Assembly (NCBI GenBank): GCA_963716145.1
Contig: OY970292.1
Location: 822,528 to 886,527 of the forward strand
Origin: Candidatus Levyibacteriota bacterium
GTDB taxonomy: Bacteria > Patescibacteriota > Microgenomatia > Levybacterales > UBA12049
Direction of reading: 5' to 3'
Length of the DNA stretch: 64,000 bases
In this document: positions 5,188 to 17,235 of the stretch, in pieces
Position numbering within the stretch: the first letter of the stretch is position 1
Layout: each line of letters begins with the position of its first letter
Notes under the pieces: generated by a model
The model's input: the letters and a program-made list of their open reading frames with translations, nothing else
Databases searched by the model: none
What the model was told of the DNA's origin: nothing
Program-made: the position numbers and the translations under genes

Positions 5188-7377
5188 TCAAAAAGAGACT
5201 TTATACAGCTTTGTGTTTTGGTTTTGGTATACAAGCGTTCCCATCTTTTGGAATTTTTGCTCAGAAAGCGTAGGGTATTTTTGCTGCTCTAAAGACCCAA
5301 TGAAAACGTACTCCACTTTATATTTTTGGAGCAAGTTCTTAGCTACTTGTAAATCCTGGGTTTCATATATGGTTTTTATTTCGTTAATTCTAGGTGCGGG
5401 AATATCATATGTTCCGCGCCAGAGCCATTCATGCACTGTCCAGCCTAGAACAGTCGGGAGGCCGGTATTTGATGATACGCGGGCAAAATCAGTGTATGAG
5501 TCGCTTTGCGCTTCAAGAATTACAGGCTGACCCGTTATGTTTTTGTTAATCCACTCAATTGCAGTATAGTCATATGGGTAGAGAGTTTTAAGATAATCAG
5601 TTCCGTCCAGACCCTTTTGTGTTTTGAGATCGCCATAATACGATTTAATCGCGAGATAAGGATAGGCCATGACGAGGGTTATTAAGCTAATAACTAATAA
5701 CAAATAACTAATAACTAATAACGTTTTTTTATAATTTATAATTTGAAATTTGAAATTTGAAATTATTCTCACGATTATGTATCCGCAGGAAAGCGAGAGC
5801 ATTATAAATGCTTGAAAAACGAGTTTAAACATCGTATTTGCCCGGTAGTGAGCCGGGTAAATGTCTTTTAGGTAAATGAATTCAGGAAGAATAATTAGAA
5901 AAGTTGAGAGAATCAAGAGCAATAATACGAATATGTCTGCCTGCAAAAACTTTTTGGCTTTCCTCATAAACAGCAAATAGGAGAAAACAAAGAAGTAGAA
6001 GAACCCATAAAGTATGAGCAATTGCCACCAATATGAATGTTGGCAATGCTTTGCTTCAAACAGAAAAGGACCGATTTTACCGATTTTATTTAAAAAATTT
6101 GGGGCGCAAAGTATGCCAATACCGGAGGCAAAGGGCTTGAAAAAGTAGCTGTAGGGCATTGAAAATACAACCAGGCTTACAAAGACTATAAAAATAGAAA
6201 AAAAGAAGTTTATTAATTTTTTAGAATAAACATAAAAAAGCACAAGCGATGCAAGAAGGAGGTAAATCCCCCCATCCCATGCATTAGTCATATACATCAC
6301 TGAAAGTAAAAACCCAATCAGGATTAGACTCGGAAAACTCGGAATACTCTGAAAACCAGACTTTCTGACTGTCAGATTTTCAGACGACCTGATATTGCTG
6401 ACGTTCTGAGTTTTCTGAGTGTTCTGGAAAAAAGCAAGTAGTACAGCAATTGTGAGCAGTACAAATGGAATATCAAGAACATGTCCGTGCAGATCCGCAA
6501 CCACCCATGAATAAATCGGAAATTCATGAATTGTGTGATCTATAAAACGAGTCGCGTTGGGGTACCAGTATGAGTTCGGGAAGCTTAAGGGTAAGAATTT
6601 AAGCTGCCATAAAGGGACAGGATGCTCGGCTGTGTAGGGTTTGAAAAAAGCATAAAGAATGTGTAGATTTCCTGCAAAAGTGACAAGGCTGGCTGTTAAA
6701 AATCCTGCAGCAAAGTTTTTGATGCCAGCTATTTTTTTGTTTTTTTGCATAAGGGCATAAAGATTTGCGCCTAGAGAAAAGGCTTCTGTAAAGCAGAATG
6801 CAAAAATTGTGGAAAGCATGAGATTGAATGTAATTTTGGAAGGAATGTCTGATAATCTGGTCAATACAGCTGTAGCCAAGTGACCAAAGTAATAATAATT
6901 GATAAAAAACGGAGTAAACCACATGTCTTTTGGGGGGAAGTAGTCCGCTCTAAGAATTGAGTTTATAAATCCAAAATCCATATATTTTTCAAGCCCATGA
7001 ATCTCAGGATTAAAAGAATGAATATATGCCCAGAAAAATAGACTAAGCAGGAATAGTATTTCTTCAAAAAGCAATAGCTTCCAGTTAAGTTTTAGGATTT
7101 GTAGGGTTTTTGACCTCAATGGGATCAGTATGAAAAGCAGTATTGCAAGAAAAATAAAAATAAGAAAGGAGAAGAATTGAGTAAATGGGGTTAGATGCAA
7201 AACCCCAAAAATAAAAATCGCGTAAGACGTAAAAGCAATGCCGAGTATTTTTGAGAAAATATATCCGCGGTCAAAAAACTTTTCAAACAGGAAAAATGTT
7301 AGCGGCAAAAATCCGGTTTCCAACATTAAGATAGTTAACCACCATTGTAAAACTGAGTGAATATCGGAAGGAAGCAT
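5188..7377 (-). CDS. large polytopic membrane protein, DUF2298/GT-C-like (possible oligosaccharyl/glycosyl transferase)
   Basis: 729 aa, more than 12 predicted TM helices plus a C-terminal soluble domain; contains in-frame heptamer repeats (TAATAAC x5, AATTTGA x3.5). Confidence 0.4.
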   Translation of the reverse strand: MLPSDIHSVLQWWLTILMLETGFLPLTFFLFEKFFDRGYIFSKILGIAFTSYAIFIFGVLHLTPFTQFFSFLIFIFLAILLFILIPLRSKTLQILKLNWKLLLFEEILFLLSLFFWAYIHSFNPEIHGLEKYMDFGFINSILRADYFPPKDMWFTPFFINYYYFGHLATAVLTRLSDIPSKITFNLMLSTIFAFCFTEAFSLGANLYALMQKNKKIAGIKNFAAGFLTASLVTFAGNLHILYAFFKPYTAEHPVPLWQLKFLPLSFPNSYWYPNATRFIDHTIHEFPIYSWVVADLHGHVLDIPFVLLTIAVLLAFFQNTQKTQNVSNIRSSENLTVRKSGFQSIPSFPSLILIGFLLSVMYMTNAWDGGIYLLLASLVLFYVYSKKLINFFFSIFIVFVSLVVFSMPYSYFFKPFASGIGILCAPNFLNKIGKIGPFLFEAKHCQHSYWWQLLILYGFFYFFVFSYLLFMRKAKKFLQADIFVLLLLILSTFLIILPEFIYLKDIYPAHYRANTMFKLVFQAFIMLSLSCGYIIVRIISNFKFQIINYKKTLLVISYLLLVISLITLVMAYPYLAIKSYYGDLKTQKGLDGTDYLKTLYPYDYTAIEWINKNITGQPVILEAQSDSYTDFARVSSNTGLPTVLGWTVHEWLWRGTYDIPAPRINEIKTIYETQDLQVAKNLLQKYKVEYVFIGSLEQQKYPTLSEQKFQKMGTLVYQNQNTKLYKVSF
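5690..5765. repeat. two heptanucleotide tandem repeat tracts inside CDS 5188..7377: (TAATAAC)x5 (one variant unit) and (AATTTGA)x3.5
   Basis: direct reading: ctaataactaataacaaataactaataactaataac ... aatttgaaatttgaaatttgaaatt; encodes LLVISYLLLVISL and NFKFQI on the minus strand. Confidence 0.8.
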
Positions 7378-7382
7378 AAAAA

Positions 7383-7922
7383 TTATTTGAAAATTTCGGT
7401 AAGCTTTGAGATAGCGAATATATTGTTGGGCAAATCCTGTATTTTCGCCATGTCATTTAGCCAAAAAAATTTAGTTTTAGTATTCGTTTTTGCTGCGTGC
7501 TTGATAAGAGATAGATCATCATCAATATAAATATCAAGGTTCAATTTATTAATAATTTTTTGTTTAAAAACATGAGGCTGGATATTTTCAAAATTGAAAT
7601 ACATCTCATCAAATATTTCATTTAATCCATATCGCTTTATTAGTTTTTCGGTGCGTTTTTCCAGAAATTTAAATCGGCTGGAAATAAGATAGAGCTTGTT
7701 ATTTTTTTTGGGAAGTCTTTTTAGAAAGTCCATATTTTCTTTAATTGCGGGTCTGAGAAATGGTGTATGGCTTGCTCTTCTAAGTAGTTGCTCGGGGTAT
7801 GATGGAATTCTGTAAAGCAGTATGCCATTGTCCTTTTTCTTATAAAGCTTGTCAATTAATTTTGGTGAAACAAAGGGAGGGTAGTCAATAAAAACTTTGT
7901 CCAAATCAAAACCAATATTCAT
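7383..7922 (-). CDS. HAD-superfamily hydrolase-like protein (5'(3')-nucleotidase-like)
   Basis: 179 aa; N-terminal FDLDKV matches HAD motif I DxDx(T/V); IYIDDD matches motif IV. Confidence 0.45.
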   Translation of the reverse strand: MNIGFDLDKVFIDYPPFVSPKLIDKLYKKKDNGILLYRIPSYPEQLLRRASHTPFLRPAIKENMDFLKRLPKKNNKLYLISSRFKFLEKRTEKLIKRYGLNEIFDEMYFNFENIQPHVFKQKIINKLNLDIYIDDDLSLIKHAAKTNTKTKFFWLNDMAKIQDLPNNIFAISKLTEIFK

Positions 7923-15934: not shown

Positions 15935-15948
15935 TGCCTAAATAAATC

Positions 15949-17235
15949 CTAAGAGTTACAAATTAGCTTTGCTACTTTTTCACCCAGCTCTACAGCGTAA
16001 TTAGTTCCCCGGTCCCATGGATAGACCTGCTGCATATTGGCAAGATAGACATTTTTTAGAGGTGTTGTCATAACGGGAATCATTTTTGAATAGTTTGTGG
16101 GGATAACCGGTTGGGCAAAAGGCGCTTTGAAAAATTCGTAGCCAACGAGGCTTTTTTTGTAATCAGGATTTATTTTTCTCAAAAAAGGATCAACCAGCTT
16201 TAGTTTTTCTTCTTTATCCATAAGATATCTTGGATCAGTTGTTTCATAGTAATTGCCAAGATAAACTAAATGCTCCCCATCATAATGTTTTTTGTCCATG
16301 AAATTGGTGTGCTCAACAACTGCCATAACCGGTGATGTTGAGTCGCATACGCTTAGCCAATAGGTATTTCCTTTTAGAAATGGCTTCTTCAGGCGAAGTA
16401 CTAAATTGGTAGCACCCAGATTTTTAAGACTCTTAAATTTTATTTTATATTCTTCAGGCAACTGTGGCGCTATTTTGAGAAAAAGGAAAGAAGAAAGGGT
16501 AAATATGACGCGGTCGAAATTTTCCATTTTCCATTTTCCATTTTCCATTTTCCATCTAACGCCAACAATATTATTATCTTCTCTAACTTCAACGATTTCA
16601 GCATTGAAAATAACTTTTCCTCCCTGTTTTTCAATTTCTTTGACAAGGTGATTTGCGAAGCTCAGAAATCCTCCTTCCGGATAAGCCAGTGATGGCGTTC
16701 GCTTAGCGAGGCGTCCCCACAGCCAGGCAAGCGAAACATCACCTGCTGAGCGCCCAAATTTATTAAGAAATTGGGGTTCCCAGATCATCTTATATGCCTT
16801 TTTTCCCATAGCAATGGGCAGAAAAGTGCTCGCATTTATTTTCTCAAGCGGCTTCCAAAAAGGGTTGAAGCGGATCGCGCCGACAACTGCTGCCATGCGA
16901 ATACGGTCAATAAGAGACAATTTAGGAAAGAGCAAAACTTGTTTTGGTGAATCAAACTGAAATATTTCACCGTCAACGTAGACTGATGTTTCAGGTCTTT
17001 TTATTATGACCCTATGTCCGATTTCGGCAGCCAAGCCCAAAATAAATTTATCATTGGTGAACCAATGATGGTAATGTTTTTCAAATGTCCAGTCCCACTC
17101 TTTTTCCTTAAATCCGATTGCCAGCCCCCCCGGTTGGGAGTCTTTTTCGAAAATAGTAACATCGTGCCCTTTTTTACTGAGTTTATATGCGGCTGACAAG
17201 CCGGTAAAACCGGCTCCGATTATTGCAATTTTCAT
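15949..17235 (-). CDS. FAD/NAD(P)-binding oxidoreductase (amine oxidase / phytoene desaturase / UDP-galactopyranose mutase-like superfamily)
   Basis: 428 aa; N-terminal dinucleotide-binding motif MKIAIIGAGFTGLSAAYKL...IFEKDSQPGGLA; internal in-frame (TTTTCCA)x5 repeat encoding WKMENGKWKMEN. Confidence 0.6.
   Translation of the reverse strand: MKIAIIGAGFTGLSAAYKLSKKGHDVTIFEKDSQPGGLAIGFKEKEWDWTFEKHYHHWFTNDKFILGLAAEIGHRVIIKRPETSVYVDGEIFQFDSPKQVLLFPKLSLIDRIRMAAVVGAIRFNPFWKPLEKINASTFLPIAMGKKAYKMIWEPQFLNKFGRSAGDVSLAWLWGRLAKRTPSLAYPEGGFLSFANHLVKEIEKQGGKVIFNAEIVEVREDNNIVGVRWKMENGKWKMENFDRVIFTLSSFLFLKIAPQLPEEYKIKFKSLKNLGATNLVLRLKKPFLKGNTYWLSVCDSTSPVMAVVEHTNFMDKKHYDGEHLVYLGNYYETTDPRYLMDKEEKLKLVDPFLRKINPDYKKSLVGYEFFKAPFAQPVIPTNYSKMIPVMTTPLKNVYLANMQQVYPWDRGTNYAVELGEKVAKLICNS
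16520..16554. repeat. (TTTTCCA)x5 heptanucleotide tandem repeat inside CDS 15949..17235
   Basis: aaattttccattttccattttccattttccattttccatct. Confidence 0.85.

Follow-up and report, generated by a model that had tools for sequence, protein, structure and literature searches.

The eight co-directional genes that occupy positions 5188–17235 of the window (the 64-kb stretch of DNA that we analyzed, 64,000 nucleotides in full, from a tiny-genome, Levybacteria-type member of the CPR/Patescibacteria) very probably form a GT-C glycosylation locus. We read the island in this way because its membrane proteins fit GT-C folds and not transporters: in both family and fold matching, none of them resembled a transporter. 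An earlier note on this DNA, which had set GT-C folds against transporter families, proposed a locus devoted to glycosylating proteins or the cell envelope, and with the membrane proteins falling on the GT-C side this is still the best reading, to which we can add candidates for the donor and the acceptor. Gene neighborhoods in related genomes provide a new lead, suggesting that the island is linked to genes like that for decaprenyl-phosphate phosphoribosyltransferase (DPPRS), and with them to a pentofuranose donor pathway.

Gene content and organization of the island

The ORFs all lie on the minus strand and fill the interval exactly, as previously described, and the gene calls of the earlier note (DUF2298, a PMT/ArnT-type protein with a DE motif, two HPDER paralogs, an extra polytopic protein, an SDR, a HAD protein and a FAD oxidoreductase) were right, with its four or five GT-C glycosyltransferases resolving to five (Table 1). 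These five (g1, g3, g5, g6 and g7) comprise one DUF2298 protein, three PMT_2 proteins, one of which is frameshifted, and one protein with no Pfam match; the other three genes encode an extended SDR (g4), a small HAD-type phosphatase (g2) and a flavoprotein with an amine-oxidase fold (g8). The spacing from g7 to g1 is operon-like, with 4-nt overlaps at g6/g5 and g4/g3 and gaps of 5–39 nt at g7/g6, g5/g4 and g2/g1. The gap between g3 and g2 is 323 nt, most of it taken up by the 3′ part of g3 in its shifted frame, and that between g8 and g7 is 361 nt. Neither a GT2 nor a recognizable flippase was found among the scanned ORFs of the window. The earlier note had overlooked the frameshift in the DE-motif gene (g3), the adjacent candidate acceptor (g9) and the phosphoribosyltransferase-based donor link in related loci.

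Table 1. Genes of the island (g1–g8) and their upstream neighbors.
Gene	Assignment	Position	Strand	Size and matches
g1	DUF2298 / Chlor_Arch_YYY	5188–7377	minus	729 aa; PF10060 3.6e-94; TIGR03662 512 bits (cutoff 300)
g2	Small HAD-superfamily phosphatase	7383–7922	minus	179 aa; HAD motifs I–IV
g3	PMT_2 GT-C with DE motif FADEAS	7955–9538, including displaced 3′ end	minus	PMT_2 9.4e-11, 42.6 bits
g4	Extended SDR, NAD-dependent epimerase/dehydratase type	9535–10581	minus	348 aa; Epimerase PF01370 1.4e-41
g5	PMT_2/PMT GT-C, HPDER loop	10591–12285	minus	564 aa; PMT_2 1.3e-17 (64.9 bits), PMT 1.7e-6 (28.2 bits)
g6	GT-C_A-fold protein	12282–13847	minus	521 aa; structure model
g7	PMT_2 GT-C, HPDER loop after TM1	13887–15587	minus	566 aa; PMT_2 1.5e-6, 29.0 bits (cutoff 26.1)
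g8	Cytoplasmic FAD flavoprotein, amine-oxidase/PPOX-like fold	15949–17235	minus	428 aa; Amino_oxidase 3.3e-22, full length
g9	Surface protein, candidate acceptor	17368–18765	minus	Big_13 1.1e-11
Upstream block	104-aa protein, PilO-like gene, PilN-like gene	18762–20244	minus	PilO, PilN Pfam matches weak

The DUF2298 protein, which carries the motif INYYYFGH, was predicted to adopt a GT-C fold (model pTM 0.81), and Foldseek matched this model to AglB (4.6e-5), DPY19, AftA (TMt 0.51) and ArnT, each with a probability of ~1. The HPDER proteins g5 and g7 are paralogs that align along their full length at 27% identity (E 5e-38), and the Asp and Glu of the loop, which are of catalytic type and lie after TM1, were conserved without exception in all 88 family members; the C-terminal outer domain of g7 carries an E-x-[WY]-D motif. 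The intact ORF of g3 (8246–9538, 430 aa) ends where its reading frame is broken at 8246–8248, and the final 97 codons, which encode the C-terminal outer domain, run on in another frame to 7955; in five full-length homologs (501–533 aa) the sequence WGWQYGPREIV spans the break site. A Pfam scan found no MIR domain in the PMT-type proteins of the island, and their similarity to true GT39 PMTs was low. Searches of Pfam and NCBIfam both left g6 without a match, and the only matches of its high-confidence structure model were GT-C enzymes.

The three remaining proteins could be assigned with differing precision. The HAD residues D6, D8, S81, K120, D134 and D135 of g2 were invariant in 26 orthologs, the profile matches being weak and non-specific (Acid_phosphat_B, E 0.013; BT0820-type in 7 of the 26 orthologs, best 7e-4) and the HAD–UbiA fusion model NF006088 giving none. 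With its GxxGxxG and YxxxK motifs and its generic best matches (nucleotide-sugar epimerases and 3-beta-HSD), g4 is a candidate epimerase acting on a lipid-linked or nucleotide-linked sugar. The flavoprotein g8 scored 405 bits (cutoff 252) against NF005560, an uncharacterised family whose neighbors are HpnE, phytoene desaturases and protoporphyrinogen oxidase.

Conservation across related genomes

Relatives of g8, which is better conserved than any other protein of the island, occurred in 307 species genomes; the best 120 clusters were at least 67% identical, and the family comprised 730 clusters (50% identity) at E≤1e-30. We compared about 80 (82) best loci, labeled mostly Levybacteria or Patescibacteria, among which the median identity of g8 to the window protein was 63% (83% for EF-G). 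The order of genes was conserved, running from PilN/PilO-like genes through a Pro/Thr-stalk protein, the flavoprotein, at least one GT-C and, in some loci, the HAD gene to DUF2298, so the earlier view that such a locus is unusual for a small AT-rich genome did not hold. The conserved end of the island is g1, present in 55 of the 82 loci, and g2 (36 of 82) lay directly upstream of the DUF2298 gene whenever both were present. The middle is a variable GT-C cassette, with g6 as a mobile member, g5 orthologs in 52 of 82 loci and g4 in 25 of 82 (both strands counted). Of the loci that reached far enough, nearly all had GT-C genes after g8; only L025 was a clear exception. Orthologs of g7 came after g8 or after a DPPRS-like gene, and in loci without g7 a 545-aa gene followed g8; its product is related to DUF2298 (hhalign probability 97.6%, E 4e-12) and also to PMT_2 groups.

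Immediately upstream of g8 in 81 of the 82 loci lies g9, in which an N-terminal and a C-terminal TM enclose FN3-like and Big_13 Ig-like domains, a Pro/Thr/Ser stalk and an [LI]PxxG-like sorting motif. Both the composition of the stalk and the sorting-signal-like tail are conserved: the peak Ser/Thr/Pro fraction in a 60-aa window had a median of 0.63 in 69 g9 orthologs versus 0.27 in other ORFs. We tentatively regard g9 as a possible glycan acceptor, a role that we consider less than likely. The block beyond it, in which the PilO-like gene of the window is frameshifted (split at about 19354–19363), includes a 104-aa protein found at 75 loci and appears in identical order at L001; it may be context with no functional tie to the island.

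Linkage to DPPRS-like genes

At one related locus (L075), an ORF between g8 and the GT-Cs matched NF008978 (decaprenyl-phosphate phosphoribosyltransferase; 3e-53), making it the one genome locus of 82 with DPPRS inside the island; L061 carries a fragment at its edge. No DPPRS-like gene was found in the 64-kb window (tblastn, E<0.01). Among metagenome loci, all 15 DPPRS-like genes with at least 51% identity and available downstream sequence were directly followed by an HPDER-type GT-C, and 12 of these loci had a g8 homolog upstream, so that g8 lay next to a DPPRS-like gene or near one at 13 loci in all (12 metagenome loci and L075). The association extended to a distant lineage whose flavoprotein, at 37–41% identity, still passes NF005560 (329 bits). 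DPPRS-headed clusters with HPDER-type GT-Cs, g4 and DUF2298, their reading frames overlapping, were found in several lineages; g4 lies within those of L096, L098, L099 and L109, and the order in L099 is DPPRS, PMT_2 (after a 17-nt overlap), SDR, PMT_2, PMT_2, a 213-aa ORF on the opposite strand and DUF2298. At L101–L105 the proximity of g8 and DPPRS was seen among housekeeping genes with no GT-C nearby, and island genes were absent near the DPPRS-like genes of L104 and L113.

A proposed pathway and its alternatives

Because DPPRS-like genes sit within or near related islands, we read the donor as a lipid-linked pentofuranose, which we consider an even call at best; five-carbon sugars on lipid carriers also feed the mycobacterial cell-wall pathway. 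A DPPRS-like UbiA enzyme, whose gene lies within the island in relatives and presumably at another site in the present genome, would convert PRPP to polyprenyl-P-ribose-5-P. The three cytoplasmic enzymes would then prepare the donor, with g2 stripping the 5′-phosphate and g4 and/or g8 oxidizing, reducing or epimerizing the ribofuranose on its lipid, giving Xylf or Araf, for instance; a g8-family fusion to an LPG_synthase_TM flippase-like domain speaks for a substrate among the membrane lipids. After export by a flippase, g1, g3, g5, g6 and g7 would take the sugars off their polyprenyl-phosphate carriers at the outer membrane face and add them to surface molecules, for which g9 would be the leading candidate and pilins the alternative. 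In the three-component pentofuranose systems described in the literature, the components are a PPPRS together with a HAD-type phosphatase, a flippase and a GT-C; SDR or DprE1/E2 epimerases serve as auxiliaries, and elaborate versions have multiple GT-Cs along with FAD oxidoreductases as well as NAD(P) epimerases (PMC11127046, PMC11194591). Counting against this pathway, no DPPRS-like gene was found in the window and no GT2 or recognizable flippase among its scanned ORFs, DPPRS falls inside the island at one genome locus of 82, some DPPRS-like genes have no GT-C or island gene nearby, g3 is broken, 57 of the 82 loci have no g4, the matches of g2 are weak, and g8 has an amine-oxidase fold, unlike DprE1 with its VAO fold.

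The acceptors might instead be envelope glycopolymers or glycolipids (teichoic-acid-like, secondary wall polysaccharide or arabinan-like), with the GT-Cs acting as successive branching and elongating transferases in the manner of Emb and Aft enzymes, a possibility well short of even. The single cassette does hold several non-redundant GT-C families, and structural matches across the island include AftA, AftB, AftD, EmbB and ArnT. The variable cassette of relatives includes genes for carbamoyltransferases and methyltransferases, activities typical of the decoration of glycans. Published pentofuranose systems, moreover, act on polysaccharides (PMC11127046). However, g9 accompanies the island almost throughout, the structures closest to g6 (STT3 and DPY19) are of peptide-directed enzymes, and no polymer-synthesis genes (Wzx/Wzy, an ABC exporter or an initiating transferase) were seen within the island.

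Somewhat less probable is classical hexose O-glycosylation on the model of actinobacterial Pmt, in which the PMT_2-type GT-Cs would move mannose, glucose or GlcNAc from undecaprenyl-P-hexose to the Pro/Thr stalk of g9 or to pilins, with the GT2 encoded elsewhere, g4 an ordinary nucleotide-sugar epimerase, g2 a sugar-phosphate phosphatase and g8 unrelated or accessory. PMT_2-type enzymes classically take hexose donors, and the PMT_2/PMT matches, the invariant DE motif, the persistence of g9, the best matches of g4 and the lack of a DPPRS gene in the window all favor this explanation. In addition, a g6 homolog (L084) adjoins genes for an NTP_transferase, a 233-aa GT2 and PAP2, a neighborhood that, for this member, points to a polyprenyl-P-hexose derived from a nucleotide sugar. 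Yet HPDER-type GT-Cs, g4 and DUF2298 recur together in DPPRS-headed clusters, the MIR domain and close GT39 similarity are missing, and why g8 is so tightly conserved at the island's head would be left unexplained.

It is unlikely that g8 is a CrtI/HpnE-like desaturase or saturase of the carrier polyprenyl chain rather than a sugar enzyme, making a lineage-specific carrier for the DPPRS-like enzyme and the GT-Cs. Its family neighbors are consistent with such a role, as are its tie to a polyprenyl-handling gene of the UbiA family, seen even at loci with neither a GT-C nor an SDR close by, and the family's fusion to a lipid-flippase-like TM domain. However, g8 falls far below the cutoffs for HpnE (61 bits versus 283) and CrtI (44 versus 238), and we know of no direct evidence of modified carriers in CPR bacteria. 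Other fusions in the family, to SAM methyltransferases, suit sugar and lipid tailoring alike.

Two further possibilities appear improbable, and to a like degree. One is that g6, whose C-terminal domain is like the globular domain of AglB, is a divergent STT3/AglB/PglB-type enzyme acting as an oligosaccharyltransferase on peptides, so that the island would combine OST-like and PMT-like steps. The other is that at least one of the GT-C proteins is a flippase for lipid-linked sugars and supplies the dedicated flippase gene that the island lacks, as archaeal Agl23 translocates such sugars in vitro (PMC11182771). The matches of g3, g5 and g7 to the Agl23 model TIGR03663 are weak, however (21–43 bits against a cutoff of 126), and the invariant Asp/Glu and conserved outer C-terminal domains suit catalysis. 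The earlier note had suggested that g8 is possibly a relative of UDP-galactopyranose mutase. We consider it highly improbable that g8 supplies furanose nucleotide sugars in this way, since the likeness is confined to the FAD Rossmann N-terminus that it shares with structures of this mutase (residues 2–63, E 0.003–0.01), no GLF domain was found, the full-length matches are to Amino_oxidase and NF005560, and GT-Cs use lipid-linked, not nucleotide-linked, donors.

Considering the locus as a whole, we lean slightly toward a lineage-conserved system of extracytoplasmic glycosylation in this Levybacteria-type bacterium that would be fed by a polyprenyl-phosphate pentofuranose donor. The island itself is conserved within its lineage and hence is not unusual there.

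Layout of the island

Eight adjacent minus-strand genes (g1 to g8) occupy positions 5188–17235, and both their ends and their families agree with those from which an earlier note had proposed a surface-glycosylation island. Overlaps of 4 nt join g6 to g5 and g4 to g3, and gaps of 39, 9 and 5 nt separate g7 from g6, g5 from g4 and g2 from g1, respectively, with wider spacings of 361 nt between g8 and g7 and 323 nt between g3 and g2. A scan for promoters and terminators was uninformative, returning 62 promoter-like sites (44.7 ± 6.4 expected) and 16 terminator-like sites (13.0 ± 3.4 expected).

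Coordinates and principal matches of the island genes and of other features in the window
Feature	Coordinates	Strand	Product and matches
Type IV secretion-like set	561-5143	-	Directly 3′ of g1
g1	5188-7377	-	729 aa; DUF2298, 3.6e-94; TIGR03662 (Chlor_Arch_YYY), 512 bits vs cutoff 300; YYYxG
g2 (HAD)	7383-7922	-	179 aa; no significant Pfam or NCBIfam match
Displaced 3′ end of g3	7955-8248	-	Final 97 codons
g3	8246-9538	-	430 aa; PMT_2, 9.4e-11
g4 (SDR)	9535-10581	-	348 aa; NAD-dependent epimerase/dehydratase, 1.4e-41
g5	10591-12285	-	564 aa; PMT_2, 1.3e-17; PMT, 1.7e-6
g6	12282-13847	-	521 aa; no Pfam match, even at E<=10
g7	13887-15587	-	566 aa; PMT_2, 1.5e-6
ORF in the g8/g7 gap	15581-15934	+	105 aa; seemingly soluble
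g8 (flavoprotein)	15949-17235	-	428 aa; Amino_oxidase, 3.3e-22, full length; NF005560/PRK07233, 405 bits vs cutoff 252
g9 (surface protein)	17368-18765	-	FN3-like and Big_13 domains
PilO-like gene	19079-19692	-	Overlapping ORFs of 130 and 91 aa
PIG-L family and GH18 genes	22633-24800	+	After EF-G
ORF	45317-48472		1051 aa; no Pfam match at E<=0.001
ORF	52995-56210		1071 aa; no Pfam match at E<=0.001
ORF	56216-58084		622 aa; no Pfam match at E<=0.001
Five tRNA genes	58150-60523		Ser-GGA, Arg-CCG, Ser-CGA, Arg-GCG, Ser-TGA
FemAB-family gene	60545-61570		After the five-tRNA cluster

Most of the g3/g2 gap is taken up by the displaced 3′ end of g3, whose frame is broken: the window reads TAC TGA A CCC where five homologs have Y-G-P (WGWQYGPREIV), and the codons for the outer C-terminal domain run on in another frame. 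Recoding of UGA as glycine, the residue that homologs have at this position, was rejected because the frame shifts as well and because translation with table 11 yields full-length conserved proteins. The break marks a pseudogene or else a 1-nt error in the assembly. The PilO-like gene is likewise interrupted, by a 1-nt frameshift near 19354–19363, and its ortholog in the related locus L001 is one intact 206-aa protein; two such indels within 12 kb hint at errors in the assembly consensus. The g8/g7 gap holds the short plus-strand ORF, which lies 8 nt downstream of a sigma-70 consensus matching at 12/12 positions (TTGACA-17-TATAAT) and has no homolog across about 120 related loci.

The polytopic proteins are of the GT-C type

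The PMT_2 proteins g3, g5 and g7 score 42.6, 64.9 and 29.0 bits against PF13231 (threshold 26.1 bits), and g5, alone among them, also passes PF02366 (PMT; 28.2 bits against 22.7). Paralogs g5 and g7 are 27% identical from end to end (E 5e-38), and hhalign joins their group to that of g3 with a probability of 99.7%. All 88 members of the g5/g7 family keep the Asp-Glu in the HPDER loop that follows TM1, and their C-terminal outer domain carries a near-invariant E-x-[WY]-D motif. The PMT_2/PMT domains, the invariant Asp-Glu in the first outer loop and an adjoining Pro/Thr-rich candidate acceptor are features shared with GT39 enzymes (PMT and actinobacterial Pmt) and with ArnT-like GT83 enzymes. 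Unlike those families, however, the island proteins score low and have no PDB sequence matches, and their related loci are linked to decaprenyl-phosphate phosphoribosyltransferase (DPPRS) rather than to a Ppm1-type synthase. In addition, a Pfam search found the MIR domain in none of the island PMT_2 proteins, and we therefore do not consider the island a GT39 PMT system. Membership of g3, g5 and g7 in Agl23 was also rejected, as their scores (35.5, 21.5 and 42.6 bits) fall below the TIGR03663 cutoff of 126.25 bits.

The DUF2298 protein g1 passes TIGR03662 by a wide margin (512.3 bits against 300.25), and within its INYYYFGH stretch Y161, Y162, Y163 and G165 are invariant. A clear TIGR03662 member next to PMT_2 proteins that weakly resemble TIGR03663 recalls the TIGR03662/TIGR03663 pairs of Archaea and Chloroflexi, although here the neighbours of g1 fail the TIGR03663 cutoff and the host is a member of the Patescibacteria. 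The structural model of g1 is less confident (pTM 0.81, mean pLDDT 73.9); it matches the folds of AglB, DPY19, AftA and ArnT with probabilities of 0.99–1.0 and modest TM-scores (0.33–0.51), and matches to transporters had probabilities <0.1. We conclude that g1 is predicted to adopt a GT-C fold.

No sequence relative of the remaining membrane protein, g6, turned up in Pfam, NCBIfam or the PDB, and those of its 2410 homologs that carry names come from Patescibacteria. It is polytopic, with a GT-C-fold core and a conserved acidic residue where the first outer loop begins. The best structural matches of its predicted model are STT3/AglB/PglB and DPY19; like these, g6 has a globular domain of similar kind at its C-terminus, and acidic or aromatic residues are conserved at comparable positions. 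It is much shorter than OSTs and reads NNYDIGG where they have WWDYG, and DLGRH where they have DxD; lacking both motifs and the STT3 Pfam domain, it is not an OST. PDB sequence searches with g5 and with the g2, g6 and g1 family profiles returned nothing usable.

The high-probability fold matches of the two proteins modelled, g6 and g1, were exclusively GT-C enzymes, which bears out the GT-C assignment made in the earlier note and led us to reject a transporter identity for the polytopic proteins. All five would take their sugars from polyprenyl-phosphate-linked donors and transfer them on the outer face of the membrane.

Three soluble enzymes

The products of g2, g4 and g8 are cytoplasmic enzymes of the tailoring type. 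In the HAD protein g2, motifs I (DxD), II (S/T), III (K) and IV (DD) are all kept, with D6, D8, S81, K120, D134 and D135 invariant among 26 orthologs. Profile matches are weak (Acid_phosphat_B at E 0.013, and a BT0820-type HAD in 7 of the 26 orthologs, at best 7e-4), and g2 has no PDB sequence match. No member of the g2 family matched NF006088, which appears to be a HAD–UbiA fusion, since the UbiA-like query aligns only at positions 195–424 of 482. The extended SDR g4 carries ITGGTGFLG (TGxxGxxG) and YGISK (YxxxK) motifs and resembles nucleotide-sugar epimerases and 3-beta-HSD only generically, with adh_short reaching no better than E 1e-3.

The flavoprotein g8 has an N-terminal FAD Rossmann motif, no signal peptide and Amino_oxidase/NAD_binding_8 matches, and it belongs to NF005560 (405.1 bits against the cutoff of 252), an uncharacterised family; about 730 clusters at 50% identity, with E<=1e-30, make up the g8 family. 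The earlier note had suggested a relative of UDP-galactopyranose mutase, an identity that we reject because the similarity is confined to residues 2–63 (E 0.003–0.01) and there is no match to GLF (PF03275). A protoporphyrinogen oxidase, as in the JGI label, is implausible given a TIGR00562 score of 30.9 bits against a cutoff of 97.85 and the glycosylation gene context. Fusions of g8-type proteins (representatives P0371, P0504, P0509 and P0472) variously carry C-terminal SAM methyltransferases, an N-terminal LPG_synthase_TM domain (MprF flippase-type) or a 400-aa N-terminal region without a Pfam match, and they fit an enzyme acting on a substrate linked to a membrane lipid. The role of g8 would be either sugar oxidation or modification of the carrier lipid. 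In two related loci (L033 and L060) a stand-alone methyltransferase gene follows g8.

The island is conserved across its lineage

Scanning one genome per species, we found a g8 relative in 307 genomes; the best 80 of those loci carry mostly Levybacteria or Patescibacteria labels, and the many relatives titled 'uncultured Gammaproteobacteria' MAG are taken to be mislabelled. The gene order across 82 related loci is PilN-like, PilO-like, a 104-aa protein, g9, g8, one or more GT-C genes, in some cases g2, and g1. The adjoining surface-protein gene, g9, lies upstream of g8 in 81 of the 82, and g2 directly precedes g1 in every locus where both were found. Together, the 307 genomes and the conserved order indicate that the island is standard for its lineage and not an oddity, contrary to the expectation in the earlier note that such a locus would be unusual for a small AT-rich genome. 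What stands of that interpretation is the gene content and the general function; its claim of rarity and the mutase idea do not.

Within this framework the island has a variable cassette at its centre. Among the 82 loci g1 was present in 55, g5 in 52, g7 in 51, g2 in 36, g4 in 25, g3 in 8 and g6 in none, and elsewhere the cassette also includes a GT87-like protein, a carbamoyltransferase and a methyltransferase. Loci without g7 have a Pfam-less 545-aa gene after g8, which hhalign relates to the DUF2298 (97.6%, E 4e-12) and PMT_2 groups. EF-G has a median identity of 83% to the window, g8 and g4 one of 63%, g2 57%, g1 52%, and g9, g7 and g5 about 40%.

In the window g6 sits inside the cassette; in the related genome L084 its homolog lies elsewhere, and the surroundings in which g6 is usually found suggest a donor of the hexose type. 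The L084 homolog is part of a compact set at 9092–12943 of that locus, preceded by an NTP_transferase and followed by a GT2 (233 aa) and then a PAP2 phosphatase; this set looks like a self-contained module for lipid-linked monosaccharide glycosylation.

A surface protein and other neighbours

Upstream of g8, g9 encodes a protein with an N-terminal TM, FN3-like and Big_13 domains, a Pro/Thr/Ser stalk and a C-terminal TM. In 69 orthologs the Ser/Thr/Pro fraction of a 60-aa window peaks at a median of 0.63, against 0.27 for other ORFs, and 78% of these orthologs have a hydrophobic C-terminal tail. Between stalk and tail, g9 and its orthologs carry an [LI]PxxG[ST]S-like motif (LPVTG in L001), which makes this end of the protein, in a CPR bacterium, resemble the sorting signal of sortase substrates. 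Pro/Thr/Ser stalks are classical targets of O-glycosylation by PMT-type enzymes in Actinobacteria. Its adjacency to the island makes g9 a candidate acceptor.

The type IV secretion-like set on the other side of the island comprises a VirB4/TraG-like ATPase, a 225-aa protein, a PrgI-family protein with CarboxypepD_reg and a T4SS pilin. The PrgI-like and pilin genes recur in just one related locus (L011), and the ATPase and the 225-aa protein match none. Farther upstream, the gene for a PIG-L family de-N-acetylase, which could deacetylate lipid-linked GlcNAc, and the GH18 gene follow EF-G; L001 keeps this order with an extra trehalase gene.

A phosphoribosyltransferase-like gene in related loci

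Published three-component systems for the extracytoplasmic transfer of pentofuranoses combine a flippase and a GT-C with a polyprenyl-phosphate phosphoribosyltransferase (PPPRS), to which a HAD-type phosphoribose phosphatase is often fused; auxiliary epimerases lead to Xylf (an SDR) or to Araf (DprE1/DprE2), and Bacillus and Xanthomonas have more elaborate versions, which use several GT-Cs together with FAD oxidoreductases and NAD(P) epimerases (PMC11194591, PMC11127046). Prompted by these systems, we examined the small polytopic ORFs of related loci. In L075, a 301-aa ORF directly between g8 and the GT-Cs matches DPPRS models of NCBIfam: it scores 180.7 bits (3e-53) against NF008978, slightly below the 207-bit cutoff, and the next-best prenyltransferase model outside DPPRS reaches 1.8e-15.

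A metagenome scan with this protein yielded 38 loci. Those with a 65–96% identical copy (L087–L094) have the order g9, g8, DPPRS, g7-like, g5-like, continuing with g4, g2 and g1 where the contig reaches. Those with a 51–54% identical copy (L096–L099 and L109) have DPPRS followed by a GT-C, and then an SDR and more GT-Cs in four of the five; in L099 the series runs DPPRS (overlapping the next gene by 17 nt), PMT_2, Epimerase, PMT_2, PMT_2, an opposite-strand 213-aa ORF and DUF2298. An HPDER-type GT-C is the next gene after DPPRS in all 15 loci with downstream sequence. Thus the GT-C and tailoring families of the island are genomically coupled to DPPRS-like genes in its relatives, and a PPPRS/DPPRS gene is encoded with a GT-C in L075, L087–L099 and L109.

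In a distant lineage (L101–L103 and L105), a flavoprotein 37–41% identical to g8 is encoded 1–3.5 kb upstream of a DPPRS-like gene, with no GT-Cs near the pair; the L101 homolog still falls within NF005560 (328.7 bits). Immediately 5′ of the g8 homolog in L101 (6578–8839) and L103 (4224–6499, with a 4-nt overlap) is a gene for an AI-2E family transporter, which could be a transport partner for the g8 product.

The 64-kb window itself has no DPPRS-like gene. Its scanned ORFs include no GT2 or recognisable flippase, there is no MATE, SMR or GtrA flippase gene between 5188 and 20244, and DPPRS lies inside the island in just one of the 82 genome loci.

Relation to known systems

The closest points of comparison are the pentofuranose systems, of which Citrobacter youngae O1/O2 has a PPPRS with a HAD-type PRP domain, a MATE flippase, a GT136 GT-C and the SDR epimerase ORF13 (Kelly et al. 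2024, PMC11127046). As in that system, the island has, beside its GT-Cs, a GalE-like SDR and a HAD phosphatase, and a DPPRS/PPPRS-like UbiA gene heads the same gene set in related loci; five GT-Cs and the SDR g4, with its TGxxGxxG and YxxxK motifs, supply the GT-C and optional SDR parts. The differences are that the window has neither PPPRS nor flippase, that g2 is a HAD protein on its own, whereas the PRP domain is fused to its synthase, that there are five GT-Cs instead of one (from PMT_2, DUF2298 and one Pfam-less family), that the flavoprotein is of an uncharacterised family, and that the host is a CPR bacterium without outer membrane or LPS.

The mycobacterial decaprenyl-phospho-arabinose (DPA) pathway, which uses the DPPRS Rv3806c, the phosphatase Rv3807c, DprE1/DprE2 and the Emb/Aft GT-Cs, shares a logic of PRPP-derived lipid-linked ribose, dephosphorylation, oxidation and reduction by a flavoprotein and an SDR, and several GT-Cs; the g1 and g6 models match AftA, AftB, AftD and Emb among other GT-Cs. 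However, g8 has an amine-oxidase fold and not the VAO-type FAD_binding_4 of DprE1, g4 is an extended SDR whereas DprE2 is a short classical one, and g2 is HAD-type whereas the mycobacterial phosphatase is PAP2. Because their families differ, g8 and g4 are not a DprE1/DprE2 pair. With the system for pilin arabinosylation by TfpW of Pseudomonas aeruginosa (bioRxiv 10.1101/2020.04.19.049825) the island shares this logic and also a pilus-gene context. We found no sequence-level orthology of island proteins to Emb, Aft or TfpW, and a search of the literature on DUF2298, PRK07233 and GT-Cs in Patescibacteria found nothing on function. The locus would work like the pentofuranose three-component and DPA systems and is a strict member of neither, since PPPRS and flippase are missing here, the flavoprotein and SDR are of families other than those of DprE1 and DprE2, and the GT-Cs are PMT_2, DUF2298 and a new family. 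We rate it as a CPR variant of extracytoplasmic, lipid-linked glycosylation, one that unites several uncharacterised families and whose link to PRPP-derived donors can be tested.

A proposed pathway

Five GT-C-fold proteins with conserved acidic loop residues, three tailoring-type cytoplasmic enzymes and a conserved neighbourhood make this very probably a GT-C glycosylation locus. In the pathway that we propose, a DPPRS-like enzyme would convert PRPP to polyprenyl-P-ribose-5-P, from which g2 would strip the phosphate; g4, g8 or both would turn the lipid-linked ribofuranose into another or a modified pentofuranose; a flippase would export the lipid-linked donor; and the GT-Cs would decorate g9, pilins or a wall polymer. 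We put a pentofuranose donor at even odds or a shade below, because the window lacks a DPPRS-like gene and, among its scanned ORFs, a GT2 or recognisable flippase, a single island of 82 includes DPPRS, g8 differs in fold from DprE1, g4 is absent from most islands and the context of g6 suggests a hexose-type donor. The full reading, in which the NF005560 flavoprotein, through its amine-oxidase fold, oxidises a PRPP-derived Araf- or Xylf-like donor as a non-orthologous replacement for DprE1, and DUF2298, HPDER PMT_2 proteins and g6 transfer the sugar onto a sortase-type stalk or pili, is rather unlikely as a whole; if true, DUF2298 and NF005560 would gain their first function, and arabinan-like chemistry would be shown for the surface of ultrasmall episymbionts.

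CPR/Patescibacteria are thought to live attached to hosts, which makes their surface chemistry, almost unknown at present, central to their biology. Here a locus kept in many Levybacteria genomes gathers families that lack an assigned function (DUF2298, NF005560 and a Pfam-less GT-C family with >2,400 homologs) beside a candidate acceptor, and the link to DPPRS gives a hypothesis of the pathway that can be tested on definite substrates, namely PRPP, polyprenyl phosphate and lipid-linked ribose. Should that hypothesis fail, the locus would be an ordinary though gene-rich GT-C glycosylation cluster. If the hypothesis is true, the pentofuranose three-component paradigm would reach CPR bacteria, and the DprE1 step, a major mycobacterial drug target, would have a second, structurally unrelated solution.
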